Of a stretch of 64,000 bases of DNA, positions 10,053 to 30,885 are shown in pieces. Position numbers and translations under genes: made by a program. Position 1 is the first letter of the stretch. Each line of letters begins with the position of its first letter. This stretch comes from an uncultured Cellvibrionales bacterium (lineage in GTDB: Bacteria; Pseudomonadota; Gammaproteobacteria; Pseudomonadales; GM7GCV1): the NCBI GenBank assembly GCA_913063225.1, contig CAJXYP010000006.1:5607-69606 (forward strand), given 5' to 3'. The notes under the pieces were generated by a model, which was not told the DNA's origin, did not search any database, and saw only the letters and a program-made list of their open reading frames with translations.

Positions 10053-10141
10053 GTAGCGACCTTTTAATAATTTTGGGAATTAGACCCATTCTAGATTACC
10101 AATCCAAAAAATGTCGGAGTAATCTCAGGTAAAATTGCCTT

Positions 10142-10150
10142 TGTTAGAAT
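10142..10150 (+). promoter_or_regulatory. candidate extended -10 promoter element (TGTTAGAAT) for the VIT-family gene
   Basis: TGnTAnAAT motif 32 nt upstream of the ATG at 10183. It lies inside the longer 10135 ORF call, which argues for the 10183 start. Confidence 0.4.
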
Positions 10151-12512: not shown

Positions 12513-12620
12513 CGCTCAGCTAATAGAGAGCCCTCAGCCAATTAAAAACGCCCTTAGCGAATAGAGCCTTCAGCGTATAGTAAGCCCCTTCAGCTAATTA
12601 AAAGCTCCTTCAGCACGCTA
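12512..12620. repeat. six degenerate tandem units (~15-21 bp), each with a C(T)TCAGC/TTAGC core and an A/T-rich tail
   Basis: Cores at 12516-20, 12534-38, 12555-59, 12570-74, 12590-94 and 12610-14, in the convergent phhB/RND spacer. Confidence 0.7.
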
Positions 12621-15600: not shown

Positions 15601-15710
15601 TATTCACGCACTTGTAGCGTCTGAAAAGACAATACACCAAAGCCCACCAATAGCATGCTAATTACTGATGCAAAAACCGGTCTCTTAACTGAAGTATCTG
15701 ATAGCCACAT
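12618..15710 (-). CDS. RND efflux transporter permease (AcrB/MdtB family)
   Basis: 1030 aa with a 12-TM, two-large-loop architecture and an N-terminus MWLSDTSVKRPVFASVISMLL typical of HAE1 pumps. Confidence 0.92.
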   Translation of the reverse strand: MWLSDTSVKRPVFASVISMLLVGFGVLSFQTLQVREYPDIQSATLSINSIYPGAAAAVMETQVTQVLEDAISGIEGIESLRSTSSDGRSTINISFDLNRNIDEAANDVRDRVSRTERLLPQELDSITIAKQDSDAQPVMFVTISSANLEPTELRDFVDRIIVDQFSVLPGVSQVNVFGPGRPSVRIWLDRLEMAARGLTVTDVESALRRENLELPAGRVDSVDREFPVRVSRGYTTPEDFQQLVIRQGDDGQLVRLSEVALVELGPEDFRSLFLINGESSVALGIVKQSTANTLEVTSGVNEAIGSLSNRLPEGMSVDTAADSSIFINGAIKSVYQTILITTGLVGLVIFLFLGSYRAMIIPVITVPVCLISSFIALSALGYSINLITLLALVLAIGLVVDDSIVVLENIYRRIEKGEPPLLAAYKGTRQVGFAVIATTAVVVAVFTPIMFLTDNIGLIFSELAVAVCAAVIFSSVLALSLAPMLCSKLLKPAGRNETRLSKKSDQLFGWLADRYQAGLTRALDKSWLAIPVIVFVFFMVGLLFSNLPAEYAPQEDQRMFIASVTAPEGTSYNKMVSRQDEIEAPLAPYLETGEVDSYLFRVPSFFTPAPNSALLFIALAPWGETESDTTEVMRDMVEQWNQLPDLRTFAFMRQGLSRGSGQPIEFVLQGLNYEELAEWRDIVLQAANSYPGIARLDSDLKETQSQILVDIDRDRAASLGISAQVVGQTLQTMMSEREVSTYVLGGEEYAVMMQARTEQRASPDDLKNIFVRSSSGQLIPLSNLITIRNEAGIANLNRYNRLRAVTLTGSVEPGYSLGDALAFLESVVEAELPSTAIVDYKGQSLEYKDSSSQIWLTFGIAMMVLFFVLAAQFESFIHPVVILVTVPLAIAGALFGLHIAGATINIYSQIGIVMLIGIASKNGILIVEFINQMRDLGHEFKESILQAARIRLRPVLMTTISTVMGAVPLILAVGPGSESRVVLGVVIFSGVSIASVFTLFLVPMVYHLIAKNTGSPDAVAHELEEMQAAQ

Positions 15711-15713
15711 GGT

Positions 15714-16844
15714 TTAGTTTCCGCCAGCCGCTGGTCGCTGTGTACCCGGACCCGGAGCCCTGGGAGCACCAGAGCCAGGACCAGAAGGTGGTGCACCCGC
15801 AACTCTTACTTCGGCTCCATTTCGCATACTCATAATTCCGTCAACAACGAGCATCTCGCCGGGCCGCAAACCTTCAGCGATAATTACCTCACCACGTAAG
15901 CGACGCTCAATAACCACATCGCGCTCGGACACGACCATTTCCGCATTTGCCACATAAACTAAAGAACGATTGCCCTTTTGCAGCAGCGAGGCCTCTGGAA
16001 TAACAATGGATTCTGTTTCGGAGGCAATTAGGGATAGAGTCATCAGCATACCGGGCCGCAGCTGCCTGTCTTTGTTAGACAAAATAGCCCGGACCTGAAC
16101 CGTGCGAGTTACAGGATCGACACGTGAGCCAACGGAAGAGACTTCAGCGATAAAGCTCAGTCCCCTATAAGCAGCACTGTTGGCTTCCACTCGATTGCCA
16201 GGTCGCACTCCGCCAAAGGCGGTTTCTGGAATACTGAAATCCAATTTAAGTGTATCGATATCATCTAGGGTGGTTATTCGGGTATTGGGCGAAACTAAAG
16301 CCCCTGGACTAACTTCGCGAAATCCCAACATGCCGGAAAATGGAGCTCGAATTAAGCGATCTTCCAATCGAGAAATAGTGGCATCCAATCTCCCTTGGTT
16401 TGCCTCGTAGCGTGCGCGGGCCTCATCTATCTGTGAGGCAGAAGCCACGTTTGAGCCCAGGATTTCTAAGCGATCCAGCTGAAGCTTTGTATCCCACAAG
16501 TTTGCTTGGGCTTCGGCCAGCAGCGCTGACTGCTCTTGGTTAGTTAGCTCCACCAAGACATCGCCAGCTTGTACTAGGTCGCCGTCTTCAAAATGCAGCG
16601 CACTAATGGTATCGCTGACTTTGGAAGTGATGATTACCGACTCATTTGCGACTAGCGTACCAACAGCTTCTACTCGGTCAGCAACAATCTCCATTCTCAC
16701 AGGCTCTAAGGACACCAAAGCGGCACCGCCTCCAAGCTCGGGGACTCCGGCCTGACCGGAGCCCTGAGAAAAATAGACCCAGGTACCAACCGCGACTGCT
16801 ACAAGTGCGAGAATAAAAATGACTGGCGAGATACTGTTTTTCAT
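15714..16844 (-). CDS. RND efflux periplasmic adaptor (MFP)
   Basis: 376 aa with a signal anchor and lipoyl/coiled-coil/beta-barrel pattern. Located 3 nt upstream of the RND permease. Gly/Pro-rich tail. Confidence 0.88.
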   Translation of the reverse strand: MKNSISPVIFILALVAVAVGTWVYFSQGSGQAGVPELGGGAALVSLEPVRMEIVADRVEAVGTLVANESVIITSKVSDTISALHFEDGDLVQAGDVLVELTNQEQSALLAEAQANLWDTKLQLDRLEILGSNVASASQIDEARARYEANQGRLDATISRLEDRLIRAPFSGMLGFREVSPGALVSPNTRITTLDDIDTLKLDFSIPETAFGGVRPGNRVEANSAAYRGLSFIAEVSSVGSRVDPVTRTVQVRAILSNKDRQLRPGMLMTLSLIASETESIVIPEASLLQKGNRSLVYVANAEMVVSERDVVIERRLRGEVIIAEGLRPGEMLVVDGIMSMRNGAEVRVAGAPPSGPGSGAPRAPGPGTQRPAAGGN

Positions 16845-16954
16845 AGAATACGATCGAGGCTTCTGTCGGGCGGGATGATACTTGAAGCGCCCAAGGCAGC
16901 GTATGGAGAGCTGTTAAATTTTATTAAGTTAAAATCTAATCAGCAACGCGGCTG

Positions 16955-17950
16955 CTACCAGGCTGAACTAGTTCGAACCTCGAATCCAAAGTCAGTTCGC
17001 AATACGAAATAAACTGCCAAACTTTGCTCTTCAGCCATGGCAAAGCCACGCTCTGCACCCATCGCTAACAATGTCGTCGCCCAACCATCGGCCCAGAGGG
17101 TCGATTCGTGAACTACCGTGACCGAGGCCAACCGCTGCGGTACCGGGTAGCCAGTCTGCGGATCTATCACATGAGAATAACGAATCCCCTCATGCAAGAA
17201 GTAATTTCGGTAGTCACCCGAAGTAGCCAGTGCACCACTGTCCATCTTAACCAGATCCTGAATTGTATCTGCCGAAGGAGCAAACATATTGTCTATCGGA
17301 GTTTCAATTCCAATACGCCATTTTTGGTCATCCTGATTCAAACCCGAGACTCGAACCTCGCCACCAACTTCCACTAAGTAGCGATCGAGTCCCTGTGATT
17401 CTAGATATTCTGAAACTAGATCAACCCCGTAACCTTTTGCCGTTGCGGATAAATTTAGAAACAGCTCGCCGATATCTTTACAGAGTTCCTGATCACTCAG
17501 CCGCAAGTTTTGATAGCCAATCACTCTAAGGAGCGCCTCAACTTCGGATTGTTCGGGTATCTGATCTGCAGTGAAATCGGTACCAAAGCCCCAAAGCTCA
17601 ATTAGTGGCCCGACCGTTGCATCAAATTTACCGGCACTTAAGAGAGACAGCTCTTGAGACACGCTTACCACTGCAGCGGTCTCTGAAGATATTGGATAAC
17701 AACCAGCGGCAGACGCATTAAATGTGGAAACTTCTGAAGCGGAATCCCAATTGGACATCTTGGTATTCACTAAATCCAAAACCCGCTGAGCACCCTGCTG
17801 AATATTTTCTTGATCAATCGCGTCATTCGTGACCACTTTCACTGACCAAGTGGTACCCATCGTGCCGCCTTGAAACGCGTATTCGTGCGGCCCAATATCG
17901 CACGCCGCGAGAGCAAAAATTAGACCAACCAAGCAAGCTTTTAGATGCAT
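16955..17950 (-). CDS. apbE: FAD:protein FMN transferase (ApbE family lipoprotein)
   Basis: Lipobox LAAC. Also MGTTWSVKV, ATAKGYGVD, ALATSGDYRNYF and HVIDPQTGYP motifs. Confidence 0.88.
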   Translation of the reverse strand: MHLKACLVGLIFALAACDIGPHEYAFQGGTMGTTWSVKVVTNDAIDQENIQQGAQRVLDLVNTKMSNWDSASEVSTFNASAAGCYPISSETAAVVSVSQELSLLSAGKFDATVGPLIELWGFGTDFTADQIPEQSEVEALLRVIGYQNLRLSDQELCKDIGELFLNLSATAKGYGVDLVSEYLESQGLDRYLVEVGGEVRVSGLNQDDQKWRIGIETPIDNMFAPSADTIQDLVKMDSGALATSGDYRNYFLHEGIRYSHVIDPQTGYPVPQRLASVTVVHESTLWADGWATTLLAMGAERGFAMAEEQSLAVYFVLRTDFGFEVRTSSAW

Positions 17951-18135
17951 ATATTTGTTGAAATAAAATCGGTAAAGAACTTTAACCCGGTATTTTACAT
18001 CCTTGGCGGCTCCTCGATAGAACCCCTTTCATCTGTCCCAAATAATTGACTTATATCAGCCGAAGAAAGCTCTAATCTCATTACCATTTTGAAAGAATTC
18101 TTAACATAGACAGGGTTAGCGGCGATCGGGCGCTT

Positions 18136-18144
18136 TGTTAGAAT
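18136..18144 (+). promoter_or_regulatory. extended -10 element TGTTAGAAT upstream of paralogue 1
   Basis: TTTGTTAGAATG, 30 nt upstream of the ATG at 18175. Homologous motif in all five spacers. Confidence 0.45.
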
Positions 18145-18174: not shown

Positions 18175-20406
18175 ATGACCAAATCAGCGAAGGAGTTAGT
18201 AAAGCTAGCTACGATTGCCTCGCTTATTTTGAATGTTGGCGTCGCCATTGCTCAAAATACCCCAGAGCAAGCCGGCAAACATTTTACTGCAGCAAGAACT
18301 GATCAAGCCCCTCAAATCGACGGCGATATTTCTGACGCTGCGTGGGCAGATGCCGCACATATTGACGACTGGCTGCAAGTTCAGCCCTTGGAATATCGAA
18401 CCGCTTCAGAGCGCACTGAGGTCTACATTATGTATGACGAAAATGCGCTTTATTTTGGTTTTTACGTTCACGACAGCAAACCGGACGAAATAACTGCGAA
18501 TGTTCTGCAGCAGGGCACAGTTACGCGCTTTGATGACAAAGTCTCGGTGATTATTGACCCTTTCAACATGCAGCGTGGCGGTTATACCTTCCAGTTAAAC
18601 CCTAATGGAGTGCGCGTAGAGGCAATTTATATCAGCGGCACCCGGGGCTCTCCTGATTGGGAGGGAGTTTGGAATGGTGCCACGAAGATGCAAGACGACG
18701 GTTGGACCGCGGAATTTGAGATTCCCTTCAAATCCTTGTCCTTTGATCCCAACAACGATACATGGGGCGTAAATTTCTCTCGTAATTTGCAGCGTAATCA
18801 AGAAAGTATGGCCTGGTACTCTCGAAACGGTACCTACAATCCTGCCAGCTCCGGCAAAATGGATGGCATCACTAATCTGACTCAGGGGTTTGGATTAGAT
18901 GTGGTGCCGGCGCTTAGTGGAAATTCATTTGAAGATCACGTTGTCGGAAACACCGTATCGGACGTACAGCCATCTGTGGATTTGTTCTATAAGGTGACGC
19001 CGCAAATTAATCTTGCTGTCACCATAAATACTGATTTTTCGGCTACGGAAGCGGATACCAATACCCTGAACGCATCTCGATTTAGACGGTTTTTTTCCGA
19101 GAAACGCGCGTTTTTTCTAAACGACTTTGATGCCTTCAAATTTGGCCTTACCGATCTTCGCTTAAACGGTAGAAGTTCAGGTAACAATGCATTGGCGTTC
19201 TATTCTCGGCGCATCGGCTTAAGTGAAGATGGTCAACCGGTAGACATTGTCGGCGGTATCAAACTTAGCGGGCGCTTAGGCAAAACCGAATTCGGCGCGT
19301 TAGCGATACGCCAAGACGAAACCACGGTTACTTCCGGCGGAGTTACAGAAATCATTGATCCAACTAACGCCATCGTCGCCAGAGTCTCACAATCAATTTT
19401 TAGTGAATCGAAAATCGGCCTCATATTTACGGATGGGAACCCCGCCGAGAATCAGAGCAACTCTCTCTACGGTGCAGATTTTCAATATCGGGATACTGAT
19501 TTCTATGCTGGCAAAAGTCTTGATGCGGTAATGCTGTATCAGCAAACCGAAGACCCCGACTTTAATGACAACCAAGCTAGCTACAGCGCTGCAGTATCTA
19601 TCAGTTCGAACGAAGGGTTTTACGGTGGCGCGCAATATTTTGTTGTCGAAGATAACTATAGTCCCGGCCTAGGTTTCACCCAGCGCACAAATGCCAAACT
19701 TATCTCCAGTAATCTTTCCTACCGATGGCTACTTGAAGGGTCTTTCATTGAGCAAGTCAGCACACATATAAATACCATTAGCTGGACAGTATTAGATACT
19801 GGTGATGTGGATTTTGATCAAATCGCCTGGACGCCATTTAATATTCAGCTTCGACGCGGTGATAGCCTCCAGTTTAAGATCGAGAAAAAGACTAGAGTTG
19901 CCAGAGCAGGTGAGCGATCGACGGGCGATCTGGGGATAGCAGTGCCCCTAGGCGAGCATAGCAATTCTAACTATGAAATTAGCTATAAAACGCCAAACTA
20001 CTTAGATCTTAGCGGCGAAGTGAATATAGACCTAGGCGATTACTATGATGGCGATTTCACCACTATTAACCCCAAAATCAGCTGGCAGGCGAACCGTCAT
20101 ATTCTGATCAGCAGCGGATATAAATATACTAAGTATGAAATGCCCGACGAAACGGTTTTTGCTCGAGAGGTAGAACTTGACGTCAATATCGCATTTAACT
20201 CTAAAGTATCTCTGACCTCGGCCATTGAGTACGACAACATTAGACGGCAGGCGTCATTTAATAACCGCCTCAGATGGAATATCAAACCCGGACAAGACCT
20301 ATGGGTGGTATTTAACCAAGGACTCGTTGATCAGGATCAAGACTATAACTTTGCAGTTGAAAGCACCTCAGCTGCCTTCAAACTCAGGTATACACTGCGT
20401 TTCTAG
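18175..20406 (+). CDS. secreted CBM9/DOMON-like + DUF5916-type outer-membrane protein, paralogue 1
   Basis: 743 aa. Signal peptide ends AIA/QNTPEQA. N-terminal APQIDGDISD..W, ALYFGF and GWTAEFEIPFKSLSF. C-terminus ends FKLRYTLRF. Confidence 0.85.
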   Translation: MTKSAKELVKLATIASLILNVGVAIAQNTPEQAGKHFTAARTDQAPQIDGDISDAAWADAAHIDDWLQVQPLEYRTASERTEVYIMYDENALYFGFYVHDSKPDEITANVLQQGTVTRFDDKVSVIIDPFNMQRGGYTFQLNPNGVRVEAIYISGTRGSPDWEGVWNGATKMQDDGWTAEFEIPFKSLSFDPNNDTWGVNFSRNLQRNQESMAWYSRNGTYNPASSGKMDGITNLTQGFGLDVVPALSGNSFEDHVVGNTVSDVQPSVDLFYKVTPQINLAVTINTDFSATEADTNTLNASRFRRFFSEKRAFFLNDFDAFKFGLTDLRLNGRSSGNNALAFYSRRIGLSEDGQPVDIVGGIKLSGRLGKTEFGALAIRQDETTVTSGGVTEIIDPTNAIVARVSQSIFSESKIGLIFTDGNPAENQSNSLYGADFQYRDTDFYAGKSLDAVMLYQQTEDPDFNDNQASYSAAVSISSNEGFYGGAQYFVVEDNYSPGLGFTQRTNAKLISSNLSYRWLLEGSFIEQVSTHINTISWTVLDTGDVDFDQIAWTPFNIQLRRGDSLQFKIEKKTRVARAGERSTGDLGIAVPLGEHSNSNYEISYKTPNYLDLSGEVNIDLGDYYDGDFTTINPKISWQANRHILISSGYKYTKYEMPDETVFAREVELDVNIAFNSKVSLTSAIEYDNIRRQASFNNRLRWNIKPGQDLWVVFNQGLVDQDQDYNFAVESTSAAFKLRYTLRF

Positions 20407-20473
20407 GTTATAAGTCTCCTAAGCTTTCGAAATAAAAATTTACCCTCCTATGGCCAAATAGGCGCAGCGGCTT

Positions 20474-20482
20474 TGCTAGAAT
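20474..20482 (+). promoter_or_regulatory. extended -10 element TGCTAGAAT upstream of paralogue 2
   Basis: TTTGCTAGAATG, 28 nt upstream of the ATG at 20511. It overlaps the 20481 ATG of the ORF track, which argues against that start. Confidence 0.45.
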
Positions 20483-20510
20483 GCCCCATTCAAAAACCAC
20501 CGGAACCATC

Positions 20511-22745
20511 ATGATCCATTCAGCGAAGGAGTTAGTAAAACTAGCTGCATTTGTCTCGCTTTTCACGCATGCCGGCTTTGCCCTTTCTCAAAATACTGCT
20601 GAGCAGGCAGGCAAAAAATTCGCAGCTGCAAAAACTGACCAGGCCCCTCAAATTGACGGTGATATATCCGATGCTTCCTGGGCGAATGCTGTGCGCGTTG
20701 ACGATTGGCTCCAGCTTTCGCCCATCGAATACCGAACTCCTTCGGAACATACCGAAGTGTGGATGATGTACGACGAGGACGCGTTGTACTTTGGTTTTTA
20801 CGCCCACGATAGCGCTCCGGATCAAATCACTAACAATGTGCTACAGCAGGGCACCACCACCCGCGATGAAGATAAAGTAGGCTTGGTTCTAGACCCCTTT
20901 AATAATCAGAGAAGCGGATACCGATTTGAGCTAAATGCAAATGGAGTGCGCTCAGAGGCCATTTATATTAGTGGCACCCGACCCTCCTTTGATTGGGAAG
21001 GCATTTGGAATGCAAGCGCAAAATTTGTTGAAGACGGCTGGACCGCCGAATTCGAGATTCCATTTAAATCTCTGTCTTTTGATCCCTCCAACGAGATCTG
21101 GGGCGTAAACTTCACGCGTAACCTCCAACGCAACCAAGAGGTTATGGCTTGGTATTCGTTTAACGGCGTATACAGCCCCACCAGCGCGGGCAAGATGACC
21201 GGTATCACCGAGACAACTCAAGGGATAGGCCTTGATGTTATTCCCGCCCTCAGCGGCAACTCTTTTGACGACAGTGTCGTAGGGGATTCAACTTCAGAGA
21301 TTCAGCCTTCCGTTGATATTTTTTACAAAATCACTCCGCAAATTAATCTTGCAGCAACAGTTAACACTGATTTTTCAGCAACCGAGGCAGACAGCAACTC
21401 GCTAAATCTCTCTCGTTTCCGGAGGTTCTTTCAGGAAAAGCGCGCATTTTTTCTAAACGATTTTGACGCTTTCAATTTTGGCCTGGCCAATTTGAGAATG
21501 CAGGGGGTCGAGTCGGGTAACAATGCGCTGGCTTTCTATTCGCGTCGTATCGGCTTGAACGACAACGGCCAGCCAGTAGATATTGTCGGCGGTATAAAAG
21601 TCAGCGGGCAGGCGGGAAATACCGAATTGGGGGCTCTAGTAATGCGCCAAGATGAGGCTGATGTTGAACTCCGTAGTGGCGGCACAGAAACTATTGCTGC
21701 GACGAATGCCATCGTTGCGCGCGTTTCCCAATCCATTTTGGGTGAATCAAAGGTCGGCTTAATTTTTACTGATGGCAACCCCACCGAAAATCAAAGTAAC
21801 TCGCTCTATGGAGTCGATTTTCAGTATCGCGATACTAGTTTCTACCAAGGTAAAACCCTTGATGCGGTTCTGATGTACCAACAATCCGTAGACCCTGACT
21901 TTGATAACAAACAAAGTAGCTATAGCGCTGCCTTTAGTGTTGGCGCGCAGGAAGGCTGGTATGGCGGTGCCCAGTATTTTGCCGTTGAAGAGAACTACAG
22001 TCCCGGGCTAGGCTTTACCCAACGAACTGATGCCGAGCTTTTATCTAGTAAATTGATTCACAGGTGGCTTTTCGACGATTCCATAATCAATTTTAGTCAA
22101 ATACAGCTCACCACCATTAGCTGGAAGGATTTAGATAGTGGCGATTTGGATTTTGAAAAGATTACTTTCATGCCGGTCGATATACATTTCCGTCGCGGCG
22201 ACTCCGTGCATTTCTTCGTTGACCACGAAAAACAATCGGTCGCCGCTGGAGACAGAGTTACCGGCGATTTAGGAATAGCCATTCCGGCAGGCATCTACGA
22301 AGATGTTATCTATAATCTTAACTACGGATCACCAGGCTATTACGATATTTCCGGTGAAATTCATATATCTAAGGGTGATTACTTTACCGGAAGTTTTACC
22401 GAGGTTAGTCCCGAGATTAGCTGGCAGGCGAATCGACATGTCGTCTTGGAGCTCGGTTACGAGCTTACAAAATACGAACTACCTGGCGAAACGATTTTCA
22501 CCAGAGAAGTGAATTTTGATTTAACCATCGCCTTTAACTCCAAAGTATCCCTAACTTCGCAAATCGAATATGACAATGTGCGCAGAGAAGCTTCGTTCAA
22601 TAACCGCTTGCGATGGAACATCGAGCCGGGTCAGGATTTGTGGGTAGTGTTTAACCAAGGATTAGTGGACCAGGATGAAGACTATAGCTTCGCAGTAGAA
22701 GACACGTCCGCAGCCTTTAAACTGCGATATACCCTACGTTTCTAA
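20511..22745 (+). CDS. CBM9/DOMON-like + DUF5916-type outer-membrane protein, paralogue 2
   Basis: Start chosen at MIHSAKELVKLAAF, which aligns with MTKSAKELVKLATI of paralogue 1. Co-linear homology throughout. Ends FKLRYTLRF. Confidence 0.85.
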   Translation: MIHSAKELVKLAAFVSLFTHAGFALSQNTAEQAGKKFAAAKTDQAPQIDGDISDASWANAVRVDDWLQLSPIEYRTPSEHTEVWMMYDEDALYFGFYAHDSAPDQITNNVLQQGTTTRDEDKVGLVLDPFNNQRSGYRFELNANGVRSEAIYISGTRPSFDWEGIWNASAKFVEDGWTAEFEIPFKSLSFDPSNEIWGVNFTRNLQRNQEVMAWYSFNGVYSPTSAGKMTGITETTQGIGLDVIPALSGNSFDDSVVGDSTSEIQPSVDIFYKITPQINLAATVNTDFSATEADSNSLNLSRFRRFFQEKRAFFLNDFDAFNFGLANLRMQGVESGNNALAFYSRRIGLNDNGQPVDIVGGIKVSGQAGNTELGALVMRQDEADVELRSGGTETIAATNAIVARVSQSILGESKVGLIFTDGNPTENQSNSLYGVDFQYRDTSFYQGKTLDAVLMYQQSVDPDFDNKQSSYSAAFSVGAQEGWYGGAQYFAVEENYSPGLGFTQRTDAELLSSKLIHRWLFDDSIINFSQIQLTTISWKDLDSGDLDFEKITFMPVDIHFRRGDSVHFFVDHEKQSVAAGDRVTGDLGIAIPAGIYEDVIYNLNYGSPGYYDISGEIHISKGDYFTGSFTEVSPEISWQANRHVVLELGYELTKYELPGETIFTREVNFDLTIAFNSKVSLTSQIEYDNVRREASFNNRLRWNIEPGQDLWVVFNQGLVDQDEDYSFAVEDTSAAFKLRYTLRF

Positions 22746-22800
22746 GGGTTATATCGCAATAAAACTTTACTCTTTCAGAGCTTAAACCGGACAGCCATTT

Positions 22801-22809
22801 TGATAGAAT
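22801..22809 (+). promoter_or_regulatory. extended -10 element TGATAGAAT upstream of paralogue 3
   Basis: TTTGATAGAATG, 30 nt upstream of the ATG at 22840. Confidence 0.45.
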
Positions 22810-22839
22810 GCCGCCAAATTTACATGGATAGCATTTTTA

Positions 22840-25071
22840 ATGGAATTGAATCAATTTAGATTGTTCAAACTGGTTCTCAGTCTCTTGCTGGTTGCACAAG
22901 CAGGGTTTGTTTTTGCCCAAAATACTCCTGAACAGGCAAATAAGAACTTCAGCATCCCCCATACAAGCCAAGCACCGCAAATCGACGGTGATTTATCTGA
23001 CCCTATGTGGCAAAACGCTGCCCATATTACTGACTTTCTTCAAGCATCGCCCTTAGAGTACCGGGCTCCATCAGAGCGCACAGAAGCTTATATCGCCTAT
23101 GATGAAGACGCTATTTATGTGGGCTTTTTTGTGCACGACAGCCGTCCAGACGAGATGACGGCGAATGTTTTAGAGCAAGAAGGCAATCTGGCCAATGAAG
23201 ATAAAGTTATCATCATTCTCGACCCTTTTGACAATCAACGTAGCGGTTACCTTTTTCAAATCAATCCCAATGGGGTTCGCAAGCAGGCGATATTTCTCTC
23301 CGGCACCCAAGCTTCTTATAGCTGGGCCGGAATTTGGAATGGCACCTCGAAAATAGTTGAGGGCGGTTGGACTGCAGAGCTTGAGATTCCCTTCAAGTCC
23401 ATATCCTTTGACCCTGAAAACCCCACTTGGGGAGTAAATTTTGGCCGCGAACTTCAGCGCACTCAAGAAGAGATGGCTTGGTATTCGCAAAACGGCGCCT
23501 TTACCCCCGTTAGTTCCGGCAAGATGACCGGAATTACCGGAGCTAGCCAAGGCATGGGATTGGATGTAGTTCCAGCCATTAGCGGCAGCTCGTTCGAAGA
23601 TAGCGTTGTTGGCAATGAGACATCCGAGATTCAACCCTCCGTAGATATCTTTTATAAAATCACACCACAAATCAATTTGGCGGTGACCCTTAACACTGAC
23701 TTTTCCGCAACCGAAGCGGATACCAATGCCCTGAATAACTCCAAGTTCAGACGCTTCTTTGAGGAAAAACGCGCCTTCTTCTTGAATGACTTTGATGCCT
23801 TTAATTTCGGTCTAGCGGAGGTAGACTTAGATGGGGTTAAATCCGACAACAATGCGCTTGCCTTCTATTCACGACGAATCGGCTTGAGTGACGATGGCAC
23901 ACCGGTAGACATTGTTGGCGGCGCCAAAATTAGTGGCCGTTCAGGAAACACAGAATTTGGCGCACTAATTATGCGACAGGATGAGACCACCCTAACCCGC
24001 GGCGGCATCACTGAAATAATTGATCCCACCAATGCGATTGTTGCTCGTGTCTCTCAAACTATTTTTTCTGAATCAAAAATCGGCGTTATTTTTACCGATG
24101 GCAACCCCGCTGAAAACGAAAGTAACTCACTTTATGGGGCAGATTTTCATTACCGAAACACCGATTTTTATAACGGCAAGAGCCTCGACGTAGTCTTGAT
24201 GGGCCAGCAGACCCAAGATCCGGACTACAACGACAATCAAGGCAGTTATAGCGCGGCCTTATCGTTTAGTGACGACGAAGGCTTTACTGGTGGAGCGCAG
24301 TATTTTGCAGTCGAAGAAAATTATCATGCCGGACTAGGCTTTACCCAGCGTACGAATTCAGAGCTGATTTCCGGACAAATCCGACATGGTCAAAACTATG
24401 AAAATAGCATTGTACAAAGGACGGTTTCTCAGATCGAAATTATTCGGTGGCAAGATTTAGATACTGGAGAGCTGGATTCAGAAGAAATCAGCTTGGTACC
24501 CCGTTGGTATAGATTTGTGCGCGGTGACACAGCCCGTTTAAAAATTGTCCAACGAAAAGAGTCCGTAAGTTTAGGTGATAACCCTTCCGGCGATTTGGGA
24601 TTTGCTATACCTATCGGAGAGTACACAGATACCAGCTATGACCTCAGATATACATCTCCTACTCATTGGGATGTTTTCGGTGAAGTTGATCTGAAGTGGG
24701 GGGACTATTTCACCGGCACCTTTACCAATACGAACCCGGAAGTAAGTTGGCAGGCAAACCAACATGTTTTGATCGGCATTGGATATGACTACACTAGGTA
24801 CGAATTTGGTACCGATTCAATCTTTACTCGAGAAGTAGAGTTCAGTCTGGATATCGCATTCAATGCTTCTTGGTCTCTTGCCTCTAAAATTGAATACGAC
24901 AATGTTCGAAGACAAGCAGCCTTCACCAACCGGCTTCGCTGGAACATGCGGCCAGGTCAAGATCTCTGGATCGTATTCAACCAAGGCCTAGTGGACGCAG
25001 ATGATGACTACAAGTTTGTAGTCGAAAATACTGCAGCGGCCTTTAAGCTGAGATATACCTTTCGATATTAG
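22840..25071 (+). CDS. CBM9/DOMON-like + DUF5916-type outer-membrane protein, paralogue 3
   Basis: 743 aa. Signal peptide ends VFA/QNTPEQA. Ends FKLRYTFRY. Confidence 0.85.
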   Translation: MELNQFRLFKLVLSLLLVAQAGFVFAQNTPEQANKNFSIPHTSQAPQIDGDLSDPMWQNAAHITDFLQASPLEYRAPSERTEAYIAYDEDAIYVGFFVHDSRPDEMTANVLEQEGNLANEDKVIIILDPFDNQRSGYLFQINPNGVRKQAIFLSGTQASYSWAGIWNGTSKIVEGGWTAELEIPFKSISFDPENPTWGVNFGRELQRTQEEMAWYSQNGAFTPVSSGKMTGITGASQGMGLDVVPAISGSSFEDSVVGNETSEIQPSVDIFYKITPQINLAVTLNTDFSATEADTNALNNSKFRRFFEEKRAFFLNDFDAFNFGLAEVDLDGVKSDNNALAFYSRRIGLSDDGTPVDIVGGAKISGRSGNTEFGALIMRQDETTLTRGGITEIIDPTNAIVARVSQTIFSESKIGVIFTDGNPAENESNSLYGADFHYRNTDFYNGKSLDVVLMGQQTQDPDYNDNQGSYSAALSFSDDEGFTGGAQYFAVEENYHAGLGFTQRTNSELISGQIRHGQNYENSIVQRTVSQIEIIRWQDLDTGELDSEEISLVPRWYRFVRGDTARLKIVQRKESVSLGDNPSGDLGFAIPIGEYTDTSYDLRYTSPTHWDVFGEVDLKWGDYFTGTFTNTNPEVSWQANQHVLIGIGYDYTRYEFGTDSIFTREVEFSLDIAFNASWSLASKIEYDNVRRQAAFTNRLRWNMRPGQDLWIVFNQGLVDADDDYKFVVENTAAAFKLRYTFRY

Positions 25072-25138
25072 ATGCGCTATAGGGATCCCAACCCTAAACA
25101 ACTCTTAATCCTAAGAAGCACTGATTAATCCCGCTTTT

Positions 25139-25147
25139 TGCTAAAAT
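25139..25147 (+). promoter_or_regulatory. extended -10 element TGCTAAAAT upstream of paralogue 4
   Basis: TTTGCTAAAATC. The spacer is homologous to the paralogue-5 spacer. An 8-bp-stem hairpin at 25160-25180 lies in the putative leader. Confidence 0.4.
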
Positions 25148-25207
25148 CGTTTTTCCAATAAACAGCCAAGTAGGCTGTTTCAATTCCCGCCCAAAAATGG
25201 ATCTAAG

Positions 25208-27466
25208 TTGATTAACCGAAGTCTCTCGCGTCAAAAATATTTCACTCAAGTAAAACTAGCAGTTTCGCTATTGATCCTTCTCCAAGCAAGTAGCCTTTTA
25301 GCCCAAAATGCGCCAGACCAGGCCGATAAAGATTTCACTGCGGCTAGAACTGATCGAGCACCTCTAATCGATGGGGATTTGTCCGACGCAGTTTGGGCGA
25401 ACGCCGTCAGAATCGATGACTTTCTTGAGTTAAGTCCCATTGAATACCGGCCTGCCTCTGAGCATACCGAAGTCTATGTGCTCTATGACGACAATGCTCT
25501 TTATGTCGGATTCTATGTTCGCGATAGCAAACCCGATGGAATTACGGCCAATGCATTGCGCCCGGATGCTCCCTTGCGAGACGATGATAAGGTCAACCTG
25601 ATTATCGATCCGTTTAATGCTCAGCGCACTGGCTATCAATTCCAGCTCAATCCTAATGGCTCACGAAGTGAAGCAATATATGTCACGGGAACACGACCGT
25701 CTTATGACTGGGAAGGTATCTGGAATGGTGGCTCAAAAATAGTTGAGGACGGCTGGACAGCCGAGATGGAGATTCCTTTCAAATCTCTATCTTTCGACCC
25801 GGATAATGAAACTTGGGGGTTCAACGTTTTTCGAAATATACAGAGGAATCAAGCCAGTACAGCTTGGTTTTCCCGCAACGGACAACCTCACCCGACAAGT
25901 GCTGGAACGATGCGCGGTATGCGAGGGCTATCACAAGGAGCCGGATTAGATATTGTTCCTGCTCTGGCTGGCAATTCTTTTGACGATAAAGTTAGCGGTA
26001 ACAGCGAATCTCAAATAGAGCCCTCGGTCGACATCTTCTACAAGATCAACCCGCAGATTAATCTTGCGGTTACGCTAAATACGGACTTTTCTGCTACAGA
26101 AGCCGATAGTAATGCCATAAACAACACCAGATTCCGACAGTTCTTTGAAGAGCAGCGTGCCTTTTTCTTGAACGATTTTGATGCCTTTAAATATGGCTTG
26201 ACCGACTTACAGTTACAGGTCGATGAGACAGGCAATAACGCACTTGCATTCTACTCTCGAAGAATCGGCATTAGCGAAGATGGCACGCCAGTAAACATCG
26301 TCGGCGGAGCCAAAATTAGCGGTCGATTCGGTGGGACAGAGTTCGGTGCCCTCGTTATGCGTCAAGACGAGTTTGAGGTTAGAGATAGCGCAGGAAACCT
26401 TACCGGTGTGATCGATCCAACTAACGCCTTTGTTGCCCGTGTCAGCCAGCCCGTTTTTGCCGAATCAAAAGTCGGCTTTATCATCACGGATGGCAACCCA
26501 GCTGAAAACCAAGACAACTCGCTATATGGGCTGGATTTCCAATACAGAGATACCGAGTTTTATGGAGGCAAAAGCCTGAATGCGATTTTCTTGGCACAAA
26601 AAACTAATGATCCGGATTTTGATGATAAGCAGGGCAGCTTTACTGCAGTTGTTTCCGTATCGGATCAAAACGGCTGGCAAGGTGGCGCTGAATACTTTGC
26701 TGTTGAAGAAAATTACAGCCCTGGTTTAGGTTTTACCCAGCGCCACAATGCGAAGCTTTTTGCAGGAAATGTTTCTTATACTTGGTTGTTTGACGATTCA
26801 TTATATTGGCAAGAGATCAGTTCGAGCCTAGACGCCCATCAGTGGAATTTTCTCGAAAGTGGTGAACTCGACGCTTCAGAGATCAGCTGGACTATTGCTG
26901 AGGCCACTAATCAGCGCGGTGATGAGTTCGGCATAGAGATTTCAAGAGAAAAAGAAAATGTGCTCCCCGGGCAGAACCCTACAGGCCAACTAGGTTTCAA
27001 TATTCCGGTCGGCACCTATACCCAAGACCTATTTGAACTAAGCTATGAAGCTCCCAGATATTGGGATTTATCCGGGAGCATGATGCTCCGCACCGGCGAT
27101 TTTTATACTGGAACGAGAACTTTTTTACGCCCCCAGCTTAGCTGGCAAATGAATAGACATGTCGAATTGAGCGGAGGCTATCGCTTCAATCGATATAGCC
27201 TCCCCGAAGGCACGACCTATACTCGTGAGCTTAACGCCGAGATGATTATTGCCTTCAGTTCAAAGGTTTCGCTTACCTCTCAGATCGAATACGACAATGT
27301 CCGCCATGAACTGATATTCAACAATCGCCTGCGCTGGGAGATCGAACCGGGTCAAGACCTCTGGGTTGTCTTTAATCAGGGCATGATCGACGAAGATGAG
27401 GATTACAAATTTGCGGTTCAGAATACCGCAGCGGCTTTTAAGCTGAGATATACCTTTCGATACTAG
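25208..27466 (+). CDS. CBM9/DOMON-like + DUF5916-type outer-membrane protein, paralogue 4
   Basis: 752 aa. TTG is the only in-frame start upstream of the signal peptide (..SSLLA/QNAPDQA). Ends FKLRYTFRY. Confidence 0.8.
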   Translation: MINRSLSRQKYFTQVKLAVSLLILLQASSLLAQNAPDQADKDFTAARTDRAPLIDGDLSDAVWANAVRIDDFLELSPIEYRPASEHTEVYVLYDDNALYVGFYVRDSKPDGITANALRPDAPLRDDDKVNLIIDPFNAQRTGYQFQLNPNGSRSEAIYVTGTRPSYDWEGIWNGGSKIVEDGWTAEMEIPFKSLSFDPDNETWGFNVFRNIQRNQASTAWFSRNGQPHPTSAGTMRGMRGLSQGAGLDIVPALAGNSFDDKVSGNSESQIEPSVDIFYKINPQINLAVTLNTDFSATEADSNAINNTRFRQFFEEQRAFFLNDFDAFKYGLTDLQLQVDETGNNALAFYSRRIGISEDGTPVNIVGGAKISGRFGGTEFGALVMRQDEFEVRDSAGNLTGVIDPTNAFVARVSQPVFAESKVGFIITDGNPAENQDNSLYGLDFQYRDTEFYGGKSLNAIFLAQKTNDPDFDDKQGSFTAVVSVSDQNGWQGGAEYFAVEENYSPGLGFTQRHNAKLFAGNVSYTWLFDDSLYWQEISSSLDAHQWNFLESGELDASEISWTIAEATNQRGDEFGIEISREKENVLPGQNPTGQLGFNIPVGTYTQDLFELSYEAPRYWDLSGSMMLRTGDFYTGTRTFLRPQLSWQMNRHVELSGGYRFNRYSLPEGTTYTRELNAEMIIAFSSKVSLTSQIEYDNVRHELIFNNRLRWEIEPGQDLWVVFNQGMIDEDEDYKFAVQNTAAAFKLRYTFRY

Positions 27467-27518
27467 AGAAGCTCTAAACATCTCTTAATCATAAGAAACA
27501 CTGATTAAGACCGCTGTT

Positions 27519-27527
27519 TGCTAATAT
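27519..27527 (+). promoter_or_regulatory. extended -10 element TGCTAATAT upstream of paralogue 5
   Basis: TTTGCTAATATC, 43 nt upstream of the ATG at 27571. A weak 6-bp hairpin at 27537-27552 lies in the leader. Confidence 0.4.
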
Positions 27528-27570
27528 CGACCTCCCAAGAATTTCGATTCTTAAGTTAGTTGGTATTTTT

Positions 27571-29814
27571 ATGCAGCAAGATTTTTCCCGCCCAATAAAT
27601 TTAGCCGCATCGCTGTTGATCCTTCTTCAGGCGACTGGCCTAGTAGCTCAAAATACGCCCGACCAGGCAAGTAAAATATTTGAGATCAGCCGCACCGATA
27701 CCGCACCGCAAATTGACGGCGATTTATCAGACCCAGTTTGGGCAAACGCAGCGCGCCGGGACGACTTTTTGGAGTTTTTTCCTGTTGAATATCGAGCCGC
27801 CTCGGAACGCACTGAAGTCTATGTAATGTATGACGAGAACGCTCTCTACATAGGCTTCTATGTTTACGATAGCAAGCCGGATGAAATCACAGCCAATGTC
27901 TTCGCAGGGGAAGGAAATCATAGATACGAAGATAAGGTCATTCTGATGCTAGACCCAGGCAATACTCAGCGTGGCGGTTATTTGTTTCAGGTAACCGCAA
28001 ATGGCCTACAAAGCGAAGCCCTCTTTACTACAGGAAGCCAAGTGGCCCGTAATTGGGAAGCCATATGGCAAGGGAATGCAAAATTTGTCAAAGATGGCTG
28101 GACCGCTGAAATGGAAATTCCATTTAAGTCTCTGTCTTTTGATCCATACAACGATACCTGGGGTGTCAATTTCACCAGAGACCTGCAAAGAACCCAGGCC
28201 GAGTTCGGTTGGTACTCTCTTAACGGAGACGCAAATGTGGCAAACGCTGGGAAAATGACTGGGATCACCGGACTGTCTCAGGGTGCCGGCTTGGATATTG
28301 TTCCCGCCCTAAGTGGCACCTCATTTGACGATAAGGTAACTGGAAACAGTGAATCTGAAATCAAACCTTCGGTAGATATTTTTTACAAAATCACTCCGCA
28401 AATTAATCTCGCAGTAACCGTAAATACGGATTTCTCTGCTACCGAAGCGGATAGCAATACGCTAAACGCTTCCCGGTTCAGACGCTTCTTCCAGGAAAAG
28501 CGCGCTTTTTTCCTTAGCGACTTTGATATCTTTAATTTTGGATTAACCGGCCGACAGCTAAATGGTAGAGAATCCGGTAACAATGCTCGGGCCTTCTATT
28601 CACGCCGAATCGGATTGAGTGAGAATGGCACACCAGTGGACATCGAAGGTGGCATTAAACTAAGCGGCCAAGTTGGACGCACTGAGTTTGGCGCCCTTGT
28701 TATGAGGCAAGATGAGTTTGAGGTAACCGATAATACTGGAACTGTGACTGACGTCATTAACCCAACCAATGCCATAGTAGCCCGGGTTTCACAGTCAATT
28801 CTTACAGAATCCAAAATTGGATTTATCTTCACCGATGGTAACCCGGCGGAAAACCAAAGCAACTCATTGTATGGAGTGGATTTCAACTATCGCGACTCTG
28901 ACTTCTACGCTGGTAAAAGCTTGGATGCGGTAGTCGCCTATCAGCAATCTGAAGATCCGGACTTTGACGACAATCAGAGCAGCTATACAGCCGCTGTATC
29001 CTTTTCCGGCAGCAGCGGTTGGCAGGGTGGTATGCAGTACTTTGGTGTCGAGGAAAACTACAACCCGGGACTAGGCTTTACCCAGCGCACTAACTCCGAG
29101 TTATTCTCAAGCGAGCTTTTTTACGTTTGGATTTTTGAAAACTCTACTTGGTTGCAAGAGGTAGAAAGCGAAATTAGTACCACAAAGTGGAACGATTTGG
29201 ATACGGGGAGTTTGGACTCATCCGAACTGAGTATTACCCTGGCCAACATTACCTTCCTTCGCGGAGATCGAGTGCAAATTGAAGTCTCTAGAGAAAAGGA
29301 AGATGTCAGCCCGAATGATAGGAATCCAACGGGCGATTTAGGGTTCAGCATTCCCAATGGCACCTATACTCAAGACAGGTACGAAATAAGTTATTCATCC
29401 CCCGCCTTTTGGGACTTAAGCGGTGGCCTGGAGCTGAATTCCGGCGACTATTTCACAGGAACCAGCACCTCCCTGCAACAAAGCCTTAACTGGCAGGCGA
29501 ATCGATATATATCTTTAGGCGGCTCATATGAATTGACTAAATTTGAGCTGCCAGAAAGCAATATTTACACTCGGGAAGTAACTTTTGACCTCGGTGTTTC
29601 CTTCACACCCTCAATTTCACTAAGCTCGCAAATCGAATATGACAACGTGCGTAGAGAGGCTTCTTTTAACAATCGCCTTAGATGGGAAATTGAGGAAGGA
29701 CAAGATCTTTGGATTGTTTATAACCAAGGGCTGCTAGACGTTGATGAAGACTACAAGTTTGCGGTTCAAAACACCGCGGTGGCTTTCAAACTAAGATATA
29801 CATTACGGTTCTGA
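27571..29814 (+). CDS. CBM9/DOMON-like + DUF5916-type outer-membrane protein, paralogue 5
   Basis: 747 aa. Signal peptide ends GLVA/QNTPDQA. Ends FKLRYTLRF. Confidence 0.85.
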   Translation: MQQDFSRPINLAASLLILLQATGLVAQNTPDQASKIFEISRTDTAPQIDGDLSDPVWANAARRDDFLEFFPVEYRAASERTEVYVMYDENALYIGFYVYDSKPDEITANVFAGEGNHRYEDKVILMLDPGNTQRGGYLFQVTANGLQSEALFTTGSQVARNWEAIWQGNAKFVKDGWTAEMEIPFKSLSFDPYNDTWGVNFTRDLQRTQAEFGWYSLNGDANVANAGKMTGITGLSQGAGLDIVPALSGTSFDDKVTGNSESEIKPSVDIFYKITPQINLAVTVNTDFSATEADSNTLNASRFRRFFQEKRAFFLSDFDIFNFGLTGRQLNGRESGNNARAFYSRRIGLSENGTPVDIEGGIKLSGQVGRTEFGALVMRQDEFEVTDNTGTVTDVINPTNAIVARVSQSILTESKIGFIFTDGNPAENQSNSLYGVDFNYRDSDFYAGKSLDAVVAYQQSEDPDFDDNQSSYTAAVSFSGSSGWQGGMQYFGVEENYNPGLGFTQRTNSELFSSELFYVWIFENSTWLQEVESEISTTKWNDLDTGSLDSSELSITLANITFLRGDRVQIEVSREKEDVSPNDRNPTGDLGFSIPNGTYTQDRYEISYSSPAFWDLSGGLELNSGDYFTGTSTSLQQSLNWQANRYISLGGSYELTKFELPESNIYTREVTFDLGVSFTPSISLSSQIEYDNVRREASFNNRLRWEIEEGQDLWIVYNQGLLDVDEDYKFAVQNTAVAFKLRYTLRF

Positions 29815-29847: not shown

Positions 29848-30885
29848 TTGGCATTGATAGTGAAACTGAAGGTGGAATTGAAAGTGGAGTTGCAGCCCTT
29901 AAAGCGTCAGTTAGTAAATATCCTTTATCGCAGTACCCTTTTTTCTCTGCTGATCTGTGTGCACTCCTTTGCCAGTGCGCAGTCAAACCAGTCGCCCTTG
30001 ATTTTTGCCAATACCAGTGACGATATTTTACTGGTTGGCGTTGTGCGTGCATTCGACTTTAATTCACCTGCGACAACAATCGAACTTGAGGTAGAAGGCT
30101 CTGGCGGACAATCCAGTATTTGGCGAGTGATTACTTCGTCCGCCACAGAATTGCGTCGATATGGCTGGACCAGCCAATCTTTGTTCGCGGGAGAACTTAT
30201 CCAGGTTAGTGGTACACCTGTCCCGAGAAGCCGCTTGGCGCTTCAACTAGATGGACTAGTGCGGGCCAATGGAGAGTCCTTGTTACCCGAGCGTGAATCC
30301 GTTTTTGACAACCTTGTGAGCGGTTCATATCAGCCTATTTCGTCGCAAGGTTCTATTCAGCTAAGCTTTGATCACTACGGCTTTTCCAGAACCACTTTTT
30401 ACGTTAATAACTTTGACGCAAGCCTAATACTAGATGCGGATGAGTTAAACCAAAGTAGTTTTCAATTGGATTTGTTAACGGAAGAACTAGATAGCAGCTC
30501 AGCGGAACTGACCCGACTGCTTAAGAGCGGAGTCTTTTTTGATGCCTCAAATTTTCCGTTAATCTCTATTCAAGCGAATACCATACAACAGCTAGATGAT
30601 AAAAAGCTGTTAGTTCTAGCAGGTATTAGTATCAAAGGCATCAGTCACCCTGCTCAATTTGAAATAACGCTTAACGCTAGCGATGTGCATCCGGAATCTG
30701 GCACTCAGGCCATCGGCTTTTCCGGCAGTGGGCGGTTACTGCGATCCAATTGGGGATTTCTAGATTTTATTCCTGAAGTTAGTGATCAAATACGGATTGA
30801 ATTTCAAATGGAATTTGGACTAGCTCCTGAATCGCCGTTCTCAAATCCTTTTGTGGGTCCAGAATATCCGTATAACCAGCCGTAG
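29848..30885 (+). CDS. secreted two-domain protein: N-terminal DUF6152-like beta-sandwich (tentative) plus C-terminal YceI-like polyisoprenoid-binding domain
   Basis: Signal peptide ..LLICVHSFASA/QS. The C-terminal half has a YceI-type pattern (SGSYQPI..SIQLSFDH, FFDASNFPLISIQA, GISIKGISHPAQFEITL, RLLRSNWGF). The start is uncertain: GTG at 29884 has AAGGTGGA upstream. Confidence 0.7.
   Translation: MALIVKLKVELKVELQPLKRQLVNILYRSTLFSLLICVHSFASAQSNQSPLIFANTSDDILLVGVVRAFDFNSPATTIELEVEGSGGQSSIWRVITSSATELRRYGWTSQSLFAGELIQVSGTPVPRSRLALQLDGLVRANGESLLPERESVFDNLVSGSYQPISSQGSIQLSFDHYGFSRTTFYVNNFDASLILDADELNQSSFQLDLLTEELDSSSAELTRLLKSGVFFDASNFPLISIQANTIQQLDDKKLLVLAGISIKGISHPAQFEITLNASDVHPESGTQAIGFSGSGRLLRSNWGFLDFIPEVSDQIRIEFQMEFGLAPESPFSNPFVGPEYPYNQP

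Follow-up and report, generated by a model that had tools for sequence, protein, structure and literature searches.

A five-gene array of CBM9–DUF5916 proteins

The window considered here, a 64,000-nucleotide stretch of contig CAJXYP010000006.1 from an uncultured Cellvibrionales bacterium, contains a head-to-tail array of five paralogous genes whose products join an N-terminal CBM9-like domain to a DUF5916-type region and are predicted to form large outer-membrane β-barrels. The genes, termed copies 1 to 5, lie on the forward (+) strand at 18175..20406 (743 amino acids (aa)), 20511..22745 (744 aa), 22840..25071 (743 aa), 25208..27466 (752 aa) and 27571..29814 (747 aa), with spacers of 94–136 base pairs (bp) separating their open reading frames (ORFs). 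A first-pass annotation made from the sequence alone had read them as five co-linear, homologous ORFs on one strand, and both the ORF list and the end-to-end alignment of the proteins (743–752 aa) bear this out, although the starts of two of these genuine ORFs are ambiguous: copy 2 has an alternative upstream start at 20481, and copy 4, taken here from a TTG at 25208, is called publicly as a 731-aa protein starting at 25271. As that annotation had also proposed, the alignment displays a signal peptide in all five copies, ending in A-x-A/S and followed by QN(T/A)(P/A)(E/D)QA, and a common C-terminus, FKLRYT(L/F)R(F/Y), which is a β-signal closing on an aromatic residue. In copy 1, the signal peptide spans residues 1–27, the CBM9-like β-sandwich approximately residues 28–235 (nucleotides (nt) 18256–18879) and the barrel approximately residues 241–739.

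Protein identity amounts to 60–69% with respect to copy 1 and 58–69% over all pairs, and DNA identity in a codon alignment to 60–68%, in line with the roughly 60–70% protein identity and the clear DNA divergence first estimated by eye. The genes form a direct repeat with a period of 2326–2395 bp, in which the best-matching stretches of DNA are just 62–77% identical, a combination that excludes both chance and a duplication introduced by assembly.

Profile searches recovered the predicted domain architecture, with every copy exceeding the Pfam gathering thresholds for CBM9_1 (PF06452; 23.4 bits) and for DUF5916 (PF19313; 22.6 bits). The CBM9_1 match covers residues ~48–212 and scores 37.9, 26.7, 31.2, 43.3 and 30.5 bits in copies 1 to 5, respectively, whereas the DUF5916 match covers residues ~243–585 at 40.2, 37.7, 24.3, 42.2 and 41.9 bits. 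The DUF5916 model is aligned only in its N-terminal part (positions ~6–345 of 572); since the proteins match just these first ~345 positions at about 40 bits, they constitute a diverged gammaproteobacterial branch of the family. Copies 3 and 4 additionally show a sub-threshold C-terminal match to the DUF2490 barrel, and none of the array proteins matches an NCBIfam model. Clustered at 50% identity, the family as a whole numbers 35,950 clusters for E ≤ 1e-3 and 6,342 for E ≤ 1e-30, which makes it very large. A search of the PDB with the family profile matched residues 43–202 to the CBM9-2 domain of Thermotoga maritima Xyn10A (1i82; E = 2e-4). The Trp of the NPWEQD segment of 1i82, which we take to be a ligand-stacking residue, aligns to R118 (Ala in copy 3), and the alignment does not extend to the second Trp.

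A haem-binding domain of the DOMON/EB_dh type was considered for the sandwich and rejected. No Met, His or Lys occurs among its conserved positions in a wide family alignment, and the EB_dh match (E = 0.033; 14.7 bits) falls below the cut-off of 33.3 bits, which together argue against such a domain; the sole nearly invariant residue of these three kinds in a 77-sequence alignment is K35, at the N-terminal edge of the sandwich. Neither Plug (PF07715) nor TonB_dep_Rec was matched by the array proteins in Pfam even at E values up to 10, no TonB-box-like segment was seen on reading the mature N-termini by eye, and LptD/OstA hidden Markov models (HMMs) gave no match. The array proteins thus show neither the Plug, TonB box and 22-strand TonB_dep_Rec barrel that define TonB-dependent transporters, nor the OstA/LptD profile, 26-strand barrel and LptE partner that define LptD. 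What they do possess is the set of features expected of an outer-membrane β-barrel delivered to the β-barrel assembly machinery, namely a signal peptide, a predicted barrel with an even number of strands and a terminal F or Y.

Predicted structure and conserved core

An AlphaFold2 model of copy 1, built on the 77-sequence family alignment, attained a mean predicted local distance difference test (pLDDT) score of 85.4 and a predicted template-modelling (TM) score of 0.79, and yields the sandwich and large barrel that the first-pass annotation had anticipated. It comprises a signal helix, a β-sandwich at residues 36–230 and 26 strand elements within residues 241–739, which we read as ~24 transmembrane strands because bulges break two long hairpin strands. 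If the N-terminal domain is taken as periplasmic, the even-numbered junctions between strands are only 2–6 aa long and all long loops fall at odd-numbered ones, the usual pattern for outer-membrane proteins, and an outer-membrane location can be presumed for the whole array. As the CBM9-like sandwich precedes the first strand of an even-stranded barrel, it is most likely, on the predicted topology, periplasmic or lumenal rather than displayed on the cell surface. Foldseek searches of the PDB retrieved solely large outer-membrane barrels (LptD, TonB-dependent receptors, the FimD usher and MtrB) with TM scores of 0.2–0.42, so that there is no close solved relative; a library of viral structures returned generic porins alone and was uninformative.

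In a wide alignment of 141 representatives, each only 26–43% identical to copy 1, by far the most conserved segment is a 71-residue loop, L2, at the junction of barrel strands 3 and 4 (residues 287–357 of copy 1; 19033..19245, + strand), with the signature NTDFSATEAD...RFRRFFxEKRAFFLNDFDAFxFG...YSRRIG. As many as 24 of its 71 positions are conserved in at least 90% of the representatives, and those reaching at least 95% in or beside the loop are N285, D287, F288, D294, R302, F303, P308, E309, R311, F313, F314, L315, F321, S344, R345 and G348. Conserved residues of the sandwich are D49, G50, W57, D121, W162, W166, W177, E180, W197, R203 and W214. The linker that joins sandwich and barrel in copy 1, QGxGLDVVP, is likewise conserved, and automatic selection of the top-conserved peptides for use in scanning metagenomes yielded NTDF[SA]ATE, from the beginning of L2, together with this linker in the form QGxGLD[VI][VI]P. 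The functional centre of these proteins would therefore appear to be composed of L2, the linker and one face of the sandwich.

Age of the array and selection acting on it

The homologues that are 53–87% identical to the array proteins resolve into five orthogroups, each containing one copy from the window together with members from other genomes, and in a phylogenetic tree rooted against a Woeseiaceae-type outgroup all five group together in a single clade. The closest relatives that carry a name are metagenome-assembled genomes of Porticoccaceae and Pseudomonadales. Independent assemblies of Porticoccaceae-like genomes carry arrays of 4–5 copies with common flanks and the same orthogroup order. 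On the side of the divergently transcribed genes, the syntenic loci share an RND (resistance-nodulation-division) permease, an RND adaptor and ApbE, and on the downstream side a DUF6152–YceI gene, a flavin adenine dinucleotide (FAD) monooxygenase and a gene resembling 3′-phosphoadenosine-5′-phosphosulfate (PAPS) reductase. The order of orthogroups is 1, 2, 3, 4, 5 in the window, 1, 2, 3, 5 in locus L006, 1, 2, 3, 4, 4′ in L008, (1/2), 3, 4, 5 in L014 and ..., 3, 5 in L015. As judged from these sequences, gene birth and death have acted upon an ancestral array that already comprised four copies or more while the order of orthogroups was kept, and the array arose within a Porticoccaceae-like lineage. 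Across loci of the whole family that extend over at least 12 kb, a single copy is found in 31, two copies in nine and three in one, and 4–5-copy arrays occur only in the clade of the window.

The ratio of nonsynonymous to synonymous substitution rates (dN/dS) between orthologs is 0.05–0.07, with regional values of 0.014 for the C-terminal strands, 0.026 for L2, 0.044 for the sandwich and 0.089 for a variable sector of the barrel; no ratio was computed between paralogues because their synonymous sites are saturated. These values point to strong purifying selection on the array and, together with the co-linear orthogroups shared between genomes, they agree with the earlier view of it as old and maintained. 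An assembly artefact or a recent amplification is ruled out by the 60–68% DNA identity, the lack of long identical tracts and the recovery of 4–5-copy arrays with the same flanks in independent assemblies, as the first-pass annotation had surmised. The lack of long identical DNA tracts between copies likewise rules out recent gene conversion.

Promoter-like elements of the individual copies

Each copy is preceded by its own extended −10-like element of the pattern TTTGnTAnAAT, situated 31–61 nt 5′ of the start codon in spacers that have otherwise diverged. On the + strand these are TTTGTTAGAAT for copy 1 (18134..18144, 31 nt before the ATG), TTTGCTAGAAT for copy 2 (20472..20482), TTTGATAGAAT for copy 3 (22799..22809), TTTGCTAAAAT for copy 4 (25137..25147) and TTTGCTAATAT for copy 5 (27517..27527). 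Over the whole window the pattern occurs six times, as against 1.8 expected. Most of the corresponding spacers in L006 and L008 retain the element, and in several spacers it is immediately preceded by a GC-rich hairpin. The sixth match, again TTTGTTAGAAT, lies at 10140–10150 (+), 33 nt before the likely ATG (10184) of a VIT1-family gene, and because it precedes a start codon outside the array, the pattern is probably the general strong promoter type of the organism rather than an array-specific signal. A shared upstream element resembling AATAAAAcTTTAC is visible by alignment and is not statistically distinct in the window. Consensus scans for intrinsic terminators and classical −35/−10 promoters returned nothing above chance, neither the leaders nor the rest of the window contain an Rfam family or a tRNA, and no Fur, Zur or riboswitch signal was found. 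In the longer spacer before copy 4, at approximately 25160–25180 (+), an inverted repeat, AAACAGCC-AAGTA-GGCTGTTT, stands just 3′ of the −10-like element; among the putative 5′ leaders, only that of copy 4 has it.

How the copies differ

Divergence among the paralogues is concentrated in a sector of the barrel wall spanning residues ~524–671 of copy 1 (19744..20187, +; predicted strands 13–20), where they share only 32–49% identity. A variable stretch had been noted at about residues 520–620; it exists and is wider than that. The variable residues lie in predicted strands 13–19 and on both faces of the wall, whereas the lowest entropy is found at the long predicted external junctions, namely L2 and residues 421–429, 460–467 and 492–506. 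Only three positions are orthogroup-specific by a strict definition and 53 by a relaxed one, mostly as conservative exchanges (Q/E, I/L/V, F/Y), and the variable sector also varies within orthogroups. With a dN/dS of 0.089, no positive selection was seen in this sector.

These observations bear on two readings that the first-pass annotation had offered for the five copies. The proposal that they have been sub-functionalised for different ligands fares poorly, given the few and conservative orthogroup-specific positions and a dN/dS of only 0.09 in the most variable region. The second proposal, of surface diversification against phages or grazers, runs against conserved external loops and variable wall strands, which are the opposite of what such pressures would be expected to produce. 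Hence, the divergence looks at best weakly like sub-functionalisation. Capacity or differential expression is a likelier reason for the retention of the five copies than a separate ligand for each, because their core is common and they differ mainly in the tolerant wall sector and in their promoters; indeed, separate promoters make dosage or differential expression the more economical reason for having five.

The DUF6152–YceI neighbour and the wider gene context

Downstream of copy 5 lies a gene for a secreted fusion of an oligonucleotide/oligosaccharide-binding (OB) fold of the DUF6152 family with a YceI domain (29884..30885, +; 333 aa from the GTG at 29884, the longest ORF beginning at 29848). 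It begins 34–70 bp past copy 5 without a promoter-like element of its own and is probably co-transcribed with that copy. The protein has a signal peptide, scores 68.0 bits against the YceI Pfam model (threshold 23.7) and retrieves 7bwl at E = 6.5e-8 in a sequence search of the PDB. Its AlphaFold2 model (pLDDT 78) displays an OB fold similar to those of the OB domains of the single-stranded-DNA-binding protein type (TM 0.5–0.69). In Foldseek searches, the YceI half attains TM 0.87 to both Pseudomonas aeruginosa PA0423 (7bwl) and Escherichia coli YceI (1y0g), and also matches the BcnA/BcnB lipocalins and polyisoprenoid-binding proteins. By its HMM score and its lipocalin-like 8-strand fold, the C-terminal half is thus a YceI family member. 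The fusion is rare, with only 22 homologues found, several of which are on contigs that also bear array copies, and it was seen solely in company with arrays of this kind.

Clustering of neighbours without prior assumptions in 77 non-redundant loci identified DUF6152-type proteins as the most recurrent neighbours of the family. They are present in 19 of the 77 loci, often as several copies together. Among loci whose flanks each extend over 5 kb or more, they occur in 9 of 26, or in 8 of 25 once the clade of the window is set aside. In 17 of 46 such neighbours the predicted mature chain starts with HH(S/G/A), and many have an RNPH motif; examples with both are encoded at L010:14580-15806, L032:2627-3655, L072:3584-4585 and L081:10689-11744, among others. 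In these canonical members, the signal peptide ends in A and is directly followed by HH(S/G/A), with RNPH some 25 residues further on, in an OB fold predicted from the model of the window homologue. It is possible, on these motifs, that they constitute a periplasmic family with an N-terminal metal site of the histidine-brace type. Many of them also have an extra, unannotated C-terminal domain of ~200 aa with the motif G.W.GDTLVV.T. Around ten DUF6152-type genes surround a DUF5916 gene in L082, and L090 has five; the DUF6152 family has therefore itself been locally expanded in some genomes.

The nearest outgroup, of the Woeseiaceae type, has a tight same-strand cluster headed by the barrel gene (L010:8001-16857, the same in L011 and similar in L018–L025). 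Here, the DUF5916 gene is joined by genes for a lactate/OFA-like transporter of the major facilitator superfamily (MFS), an Nramp-like protein, a thiamine pyrophosphate (TPP) enzyme of the PRK08266 subfamily and two DUF6152 proteins. Upstream of it are genes for a divergent 220-aa membrane protein, HupE/UreJ, cytochrome b561 and LigB-type extradiol dioxygenases, with an IclR regulator adjoining. The Nramp match is weak, its 45 bits being below the cut-off. This arrangement favours a role in uptake, the cargo being either organic (an aromatic compound or an acid) or metal-associated.

Other genes of the window

The divergent conserved neighbours of the array (12618..17950, − strand) encode the FAD:protein FMN transferase ApbE (16955-17950), an RND adaptor (15714-16844) and an RND permease (12618-15710), and related genomes have all three in synteny with the array. 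The ApbE gene immediately precedes those for the adaptor and permease on their common strand, an unusual pairing, and no outer-membrane factor gene accompanies them. We considered the barrels and their YceI partner as substrates of ApbE, whose flavinylation motif is Dxx(S/T)(S/G)A(S/T) in an extracytoplasmic domain of the FMN-bind type. This idea was rejected: the motif is partial and not conserved, the NTDFSAT of L2 fitting its last three positions only. Residue S289 is not conserved across the family, no FMN_bind domain is found by Pfam in the array proteins, and the adjacency to ApbE is confined to the clade of the window.

Two further genes on the downstream side look incomplete. The htpX gene is apparently split on the + strand between 32952–33389 and 33592–33846; the first piece encodes a 145-aa fragment corresponding to positions 2–131 of the 285-position HtpX profile, the second an 84-aa ORF that by eye resembles the C-terminal part of HtpX, and the ~200 nt between them are out of frame. 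Either htpX is a pseudogene here or sequencing has introduced frameshifts. The ORF of a sigma-54 activator at 35331-36203 (−) starts at position 66 of the Sigma54_activat model with no receiver or Walker-A part upstream, and is either truncated or has a miscalled start.

A possible TonB-independent port and its alternatives

We tentatively favour, with somewhat less than even confidence, the reading of the array proteins as outer-membrane ports that would operate without TonB, pass small solutes of a hydrophobic or aromatic and possibly metal-bound kind, and act together with periplasmic proteins of the DUF6152 type. In this proposal, which draws on the alignments and the predicted models, L2 would fold into the lumen as a constriction or gate, and the β-sandwich would be placed at the periplasmic mouth or partly within the lumen. 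Cargo might then be exchanged between the barrel and a DUF6152-type carrier, which in the lineage of the window is fused to a lipocalin-like YceI domain, a fusion that points to a hydrophobic, isoprenoid or aromatic cargo. The five copies would share this core, differing mainly in the tolerant wall sector and in their promoters.

Several points weigh against this proposal. The position of the sandwich, whether periplasmic or as a plug, and the folding of L2 into the lumen are read off strand order and conservation, and residues 289–311 of L2 have pLDDT below 50 though they are conserved. The DUF6152 domain of the window does not have the His-His and NPH motifs typical of its family, and the co-transcription of its gene with copy 5 is deduced solely from the short gap and the missing promoter-like element. 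Moreover, the Pfam tally of 281 neighbouring ORFs is heterogeneous: TonB receptors (8), β-lactamase folds (6), metallo-β-lactamases (6), Nramp-like proteins (5), MFS transporters (4) and, with three each, HupE/UreJ, cytochrome b561, ZnuA, LigB and TPP enzymes. Many recurrent neighbours come from the one conserved outgroup locus and therefore represent few independent events. Finally, searches of the literature for DUF5916, PF19313, DUF6152, CBM9 with outer membrane, and DOMON with porin returned nothing relevant, which leaves the earlier assertion that no function has been published for the family standing.

A first alternative is an exporter or inserter akin to LptD, wherein the sandwich would take a hydrophobic envelope component, such as a glycolipid, an isoprenoid or a quinone-type lipid, from the YceI carrier and the barrel would deliver it into or across the outer membrane. 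The best Foldseek E-values are indeed those of LptD chains, which combine an N-terminal β-jellyroll with a 26-strand barrel; the sandwich precedes strand 1 and would thus be on the periplasmic side, the linker between the domains is conserved, and the partner has a polyisoprenoid-binding fold. Nevertheless, the TM score is only ~0.3, a level equally reached by TonB receptors, ushers and MtrB, and neither an LptD/OstA match nor a gene for an LptE-like lipoprotein is present in the locus. Five copies, with frequent absence and duplication, are unlike a core biogenesis machine, and the outgroup operon codes for inner-membrane importers; hence, we consider this alternative quite unlikely.

A port for metal acquisition or redox functions, admitting a metal ion or chelate to be passed on to the N-terminal His-His/NPH site of DUF6152, is likewise accorded a small probability. 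It would make sense of the HH(S/G/A) start in 17 of the 46 DUF6152 neighbours and of the RNPH motif in many, of Nramp-like, HupE/UreJ, ZnuA/ABC-3, cytochrome b561 and TonB receptor genes among the neighbours, of the invariant acidic residues in which L2 is rich (D287, D294, E309 and D317), and of the presence in the window, less than 10 kb away, of genes for VIT1 and for a membrane protein of the ferric-reductase type. It is less easily reconciled with the DUF6152 domain of the window, which has lost its histidines while gaining a lipid-binding YceI domain, or with the below-cut-off Nramp match and the fact that the Nramp, HupE and cytochrome b561 neighbours come mostly from one outgroup locus; nor does any Fur, Zur or riboswitch signal speak for it.

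The proposals of the first-pass annotation can be put as a surface lectin or decoy diversified in ligand specificity or for the evasion of phages and grazers, a reading that we regard as very unlikely. The CBM9-like N-terminal domain and five diverged copies with a variable stretch speak for it. On the other hand, conservation is greatest in the loops predicted to face outwards, and the variable residues belong to transmembrane strands, where they occupy both faces; no region exceeds a dN/dS of 0.09, the few substitutions that mark individual orthogroups are conservative, the sandwich, being N-terminal to a barrel with an even number of strands, falls on the periplasmic side, and the stacking Trp of CBM9 is aligned to Arg or Ala. 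An outer-membrane enzyme in the manner of PagP, OMPLA or OmpT, with the charged and aromatic residues of L2 as active site and the CBM9-like domain as binding module, is highly improbable: D287, D294, E309, R311, S344 and R345 of L2 are invariant even at 26–43% identity to copy 1, and the region is modelled with low confidence despite its conservation, but neither Pfam, NCBIfam nor the PDB yielded any similarity to an enzyme family, the sequences contain no recognisable catalytic motif, and known outer-membrane enzymes are barrels of 8–12 strands.

The port proposal can also be put in a bolder and, as a whole, unlikely form, in which DUF5916 would represent a new class of trans-envelope machine. 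This would unite a ~24-strand barrel, an invariant in-folded gate loop, an integral periplasmic ligand-binding domain of the DOMON/CBM9 type and dedicated periplasmic OB-fold (DUF6152) partners, many of them perhaps with an N-terminal metal site resembling a histidine brace, and would take up (or deliver) hydrophobic or aromatic compounds without TonB, with the window presenting a five-fold version augmented by a YceI lipid carrier. The proteins themselves belong to families already catalogued in Pfam and are not a new kind of sequence, and the array is not in itself evidence of a new mechanism. Even so, the family is among the larger uncharacterised groups of big outer-membrane proteins, and this locus is a good entry point to it, providing as handles a five-fold array under purifying selection, a lineage-restricted partner with a lipid-binding fold and a sharply defined invariant loop. 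Identification of the cargo would give a function to thousands of genes of marine and soil bacteria and could reveal a new TonB-free route for small molecules across the outer membrane.

Comparison with known systems

Among structurally characterised systems, LptD is similar in that a periplasmic N-terminal β-sandwich leads straight into a very large barrel, here alongside a partner with a lipid-binding fold. The array proteins differ from it in having ~24 rather than 26 predicted strands, no relation by sequence or HMM and no gene for an LptE-like plug, and in being multi-copy and probably non-essential. TonB-dependent transporters also place an N-terminal globular domain before a large barrel, and genes of the uptake type occur near some relatives of the array; theirs is a 22-strand barrel with a plug, whereas here a CBM9/DOMON-type sandwich occupies the N-terminus and the TM scores are 0.22–0.34. 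The homology of this domain to a true CBM9 (1i82) is detectable by profile, yet it is joined to a membrane barrel instead of a glycoside hydrolase and has Arg, or Ala in copy 3, aligned to one ligand-stacking Trp. The C-terminal half of the downstream protein shares the fold of the YceI/BcnA-type proteins (1y0g, 7bwl, 5ixg/5ixh and 1wub; TM 0.75–0.87), from which it differs in its fusion to an N-terminal DUF6152 OB-fold and in its genetic association, which is with a barrel array instead of a gene for cytochrome b561. Finally, the order of domains and the length of ~720–750 aa are common to the window copies and thousands of two-domain DUF5916/CBM9_1 homologues, which NCBI names either “carbohydrate binding family 9 domain-containing protein” or “DUF5916 domain-containing protein”. 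What sets the present system apart from this general family is the 4–5-copy array and its OB–YceI partner, which are restricted to the clade of the window and, on comparison of the available sequences, represent a lineage-restricted variant of it.

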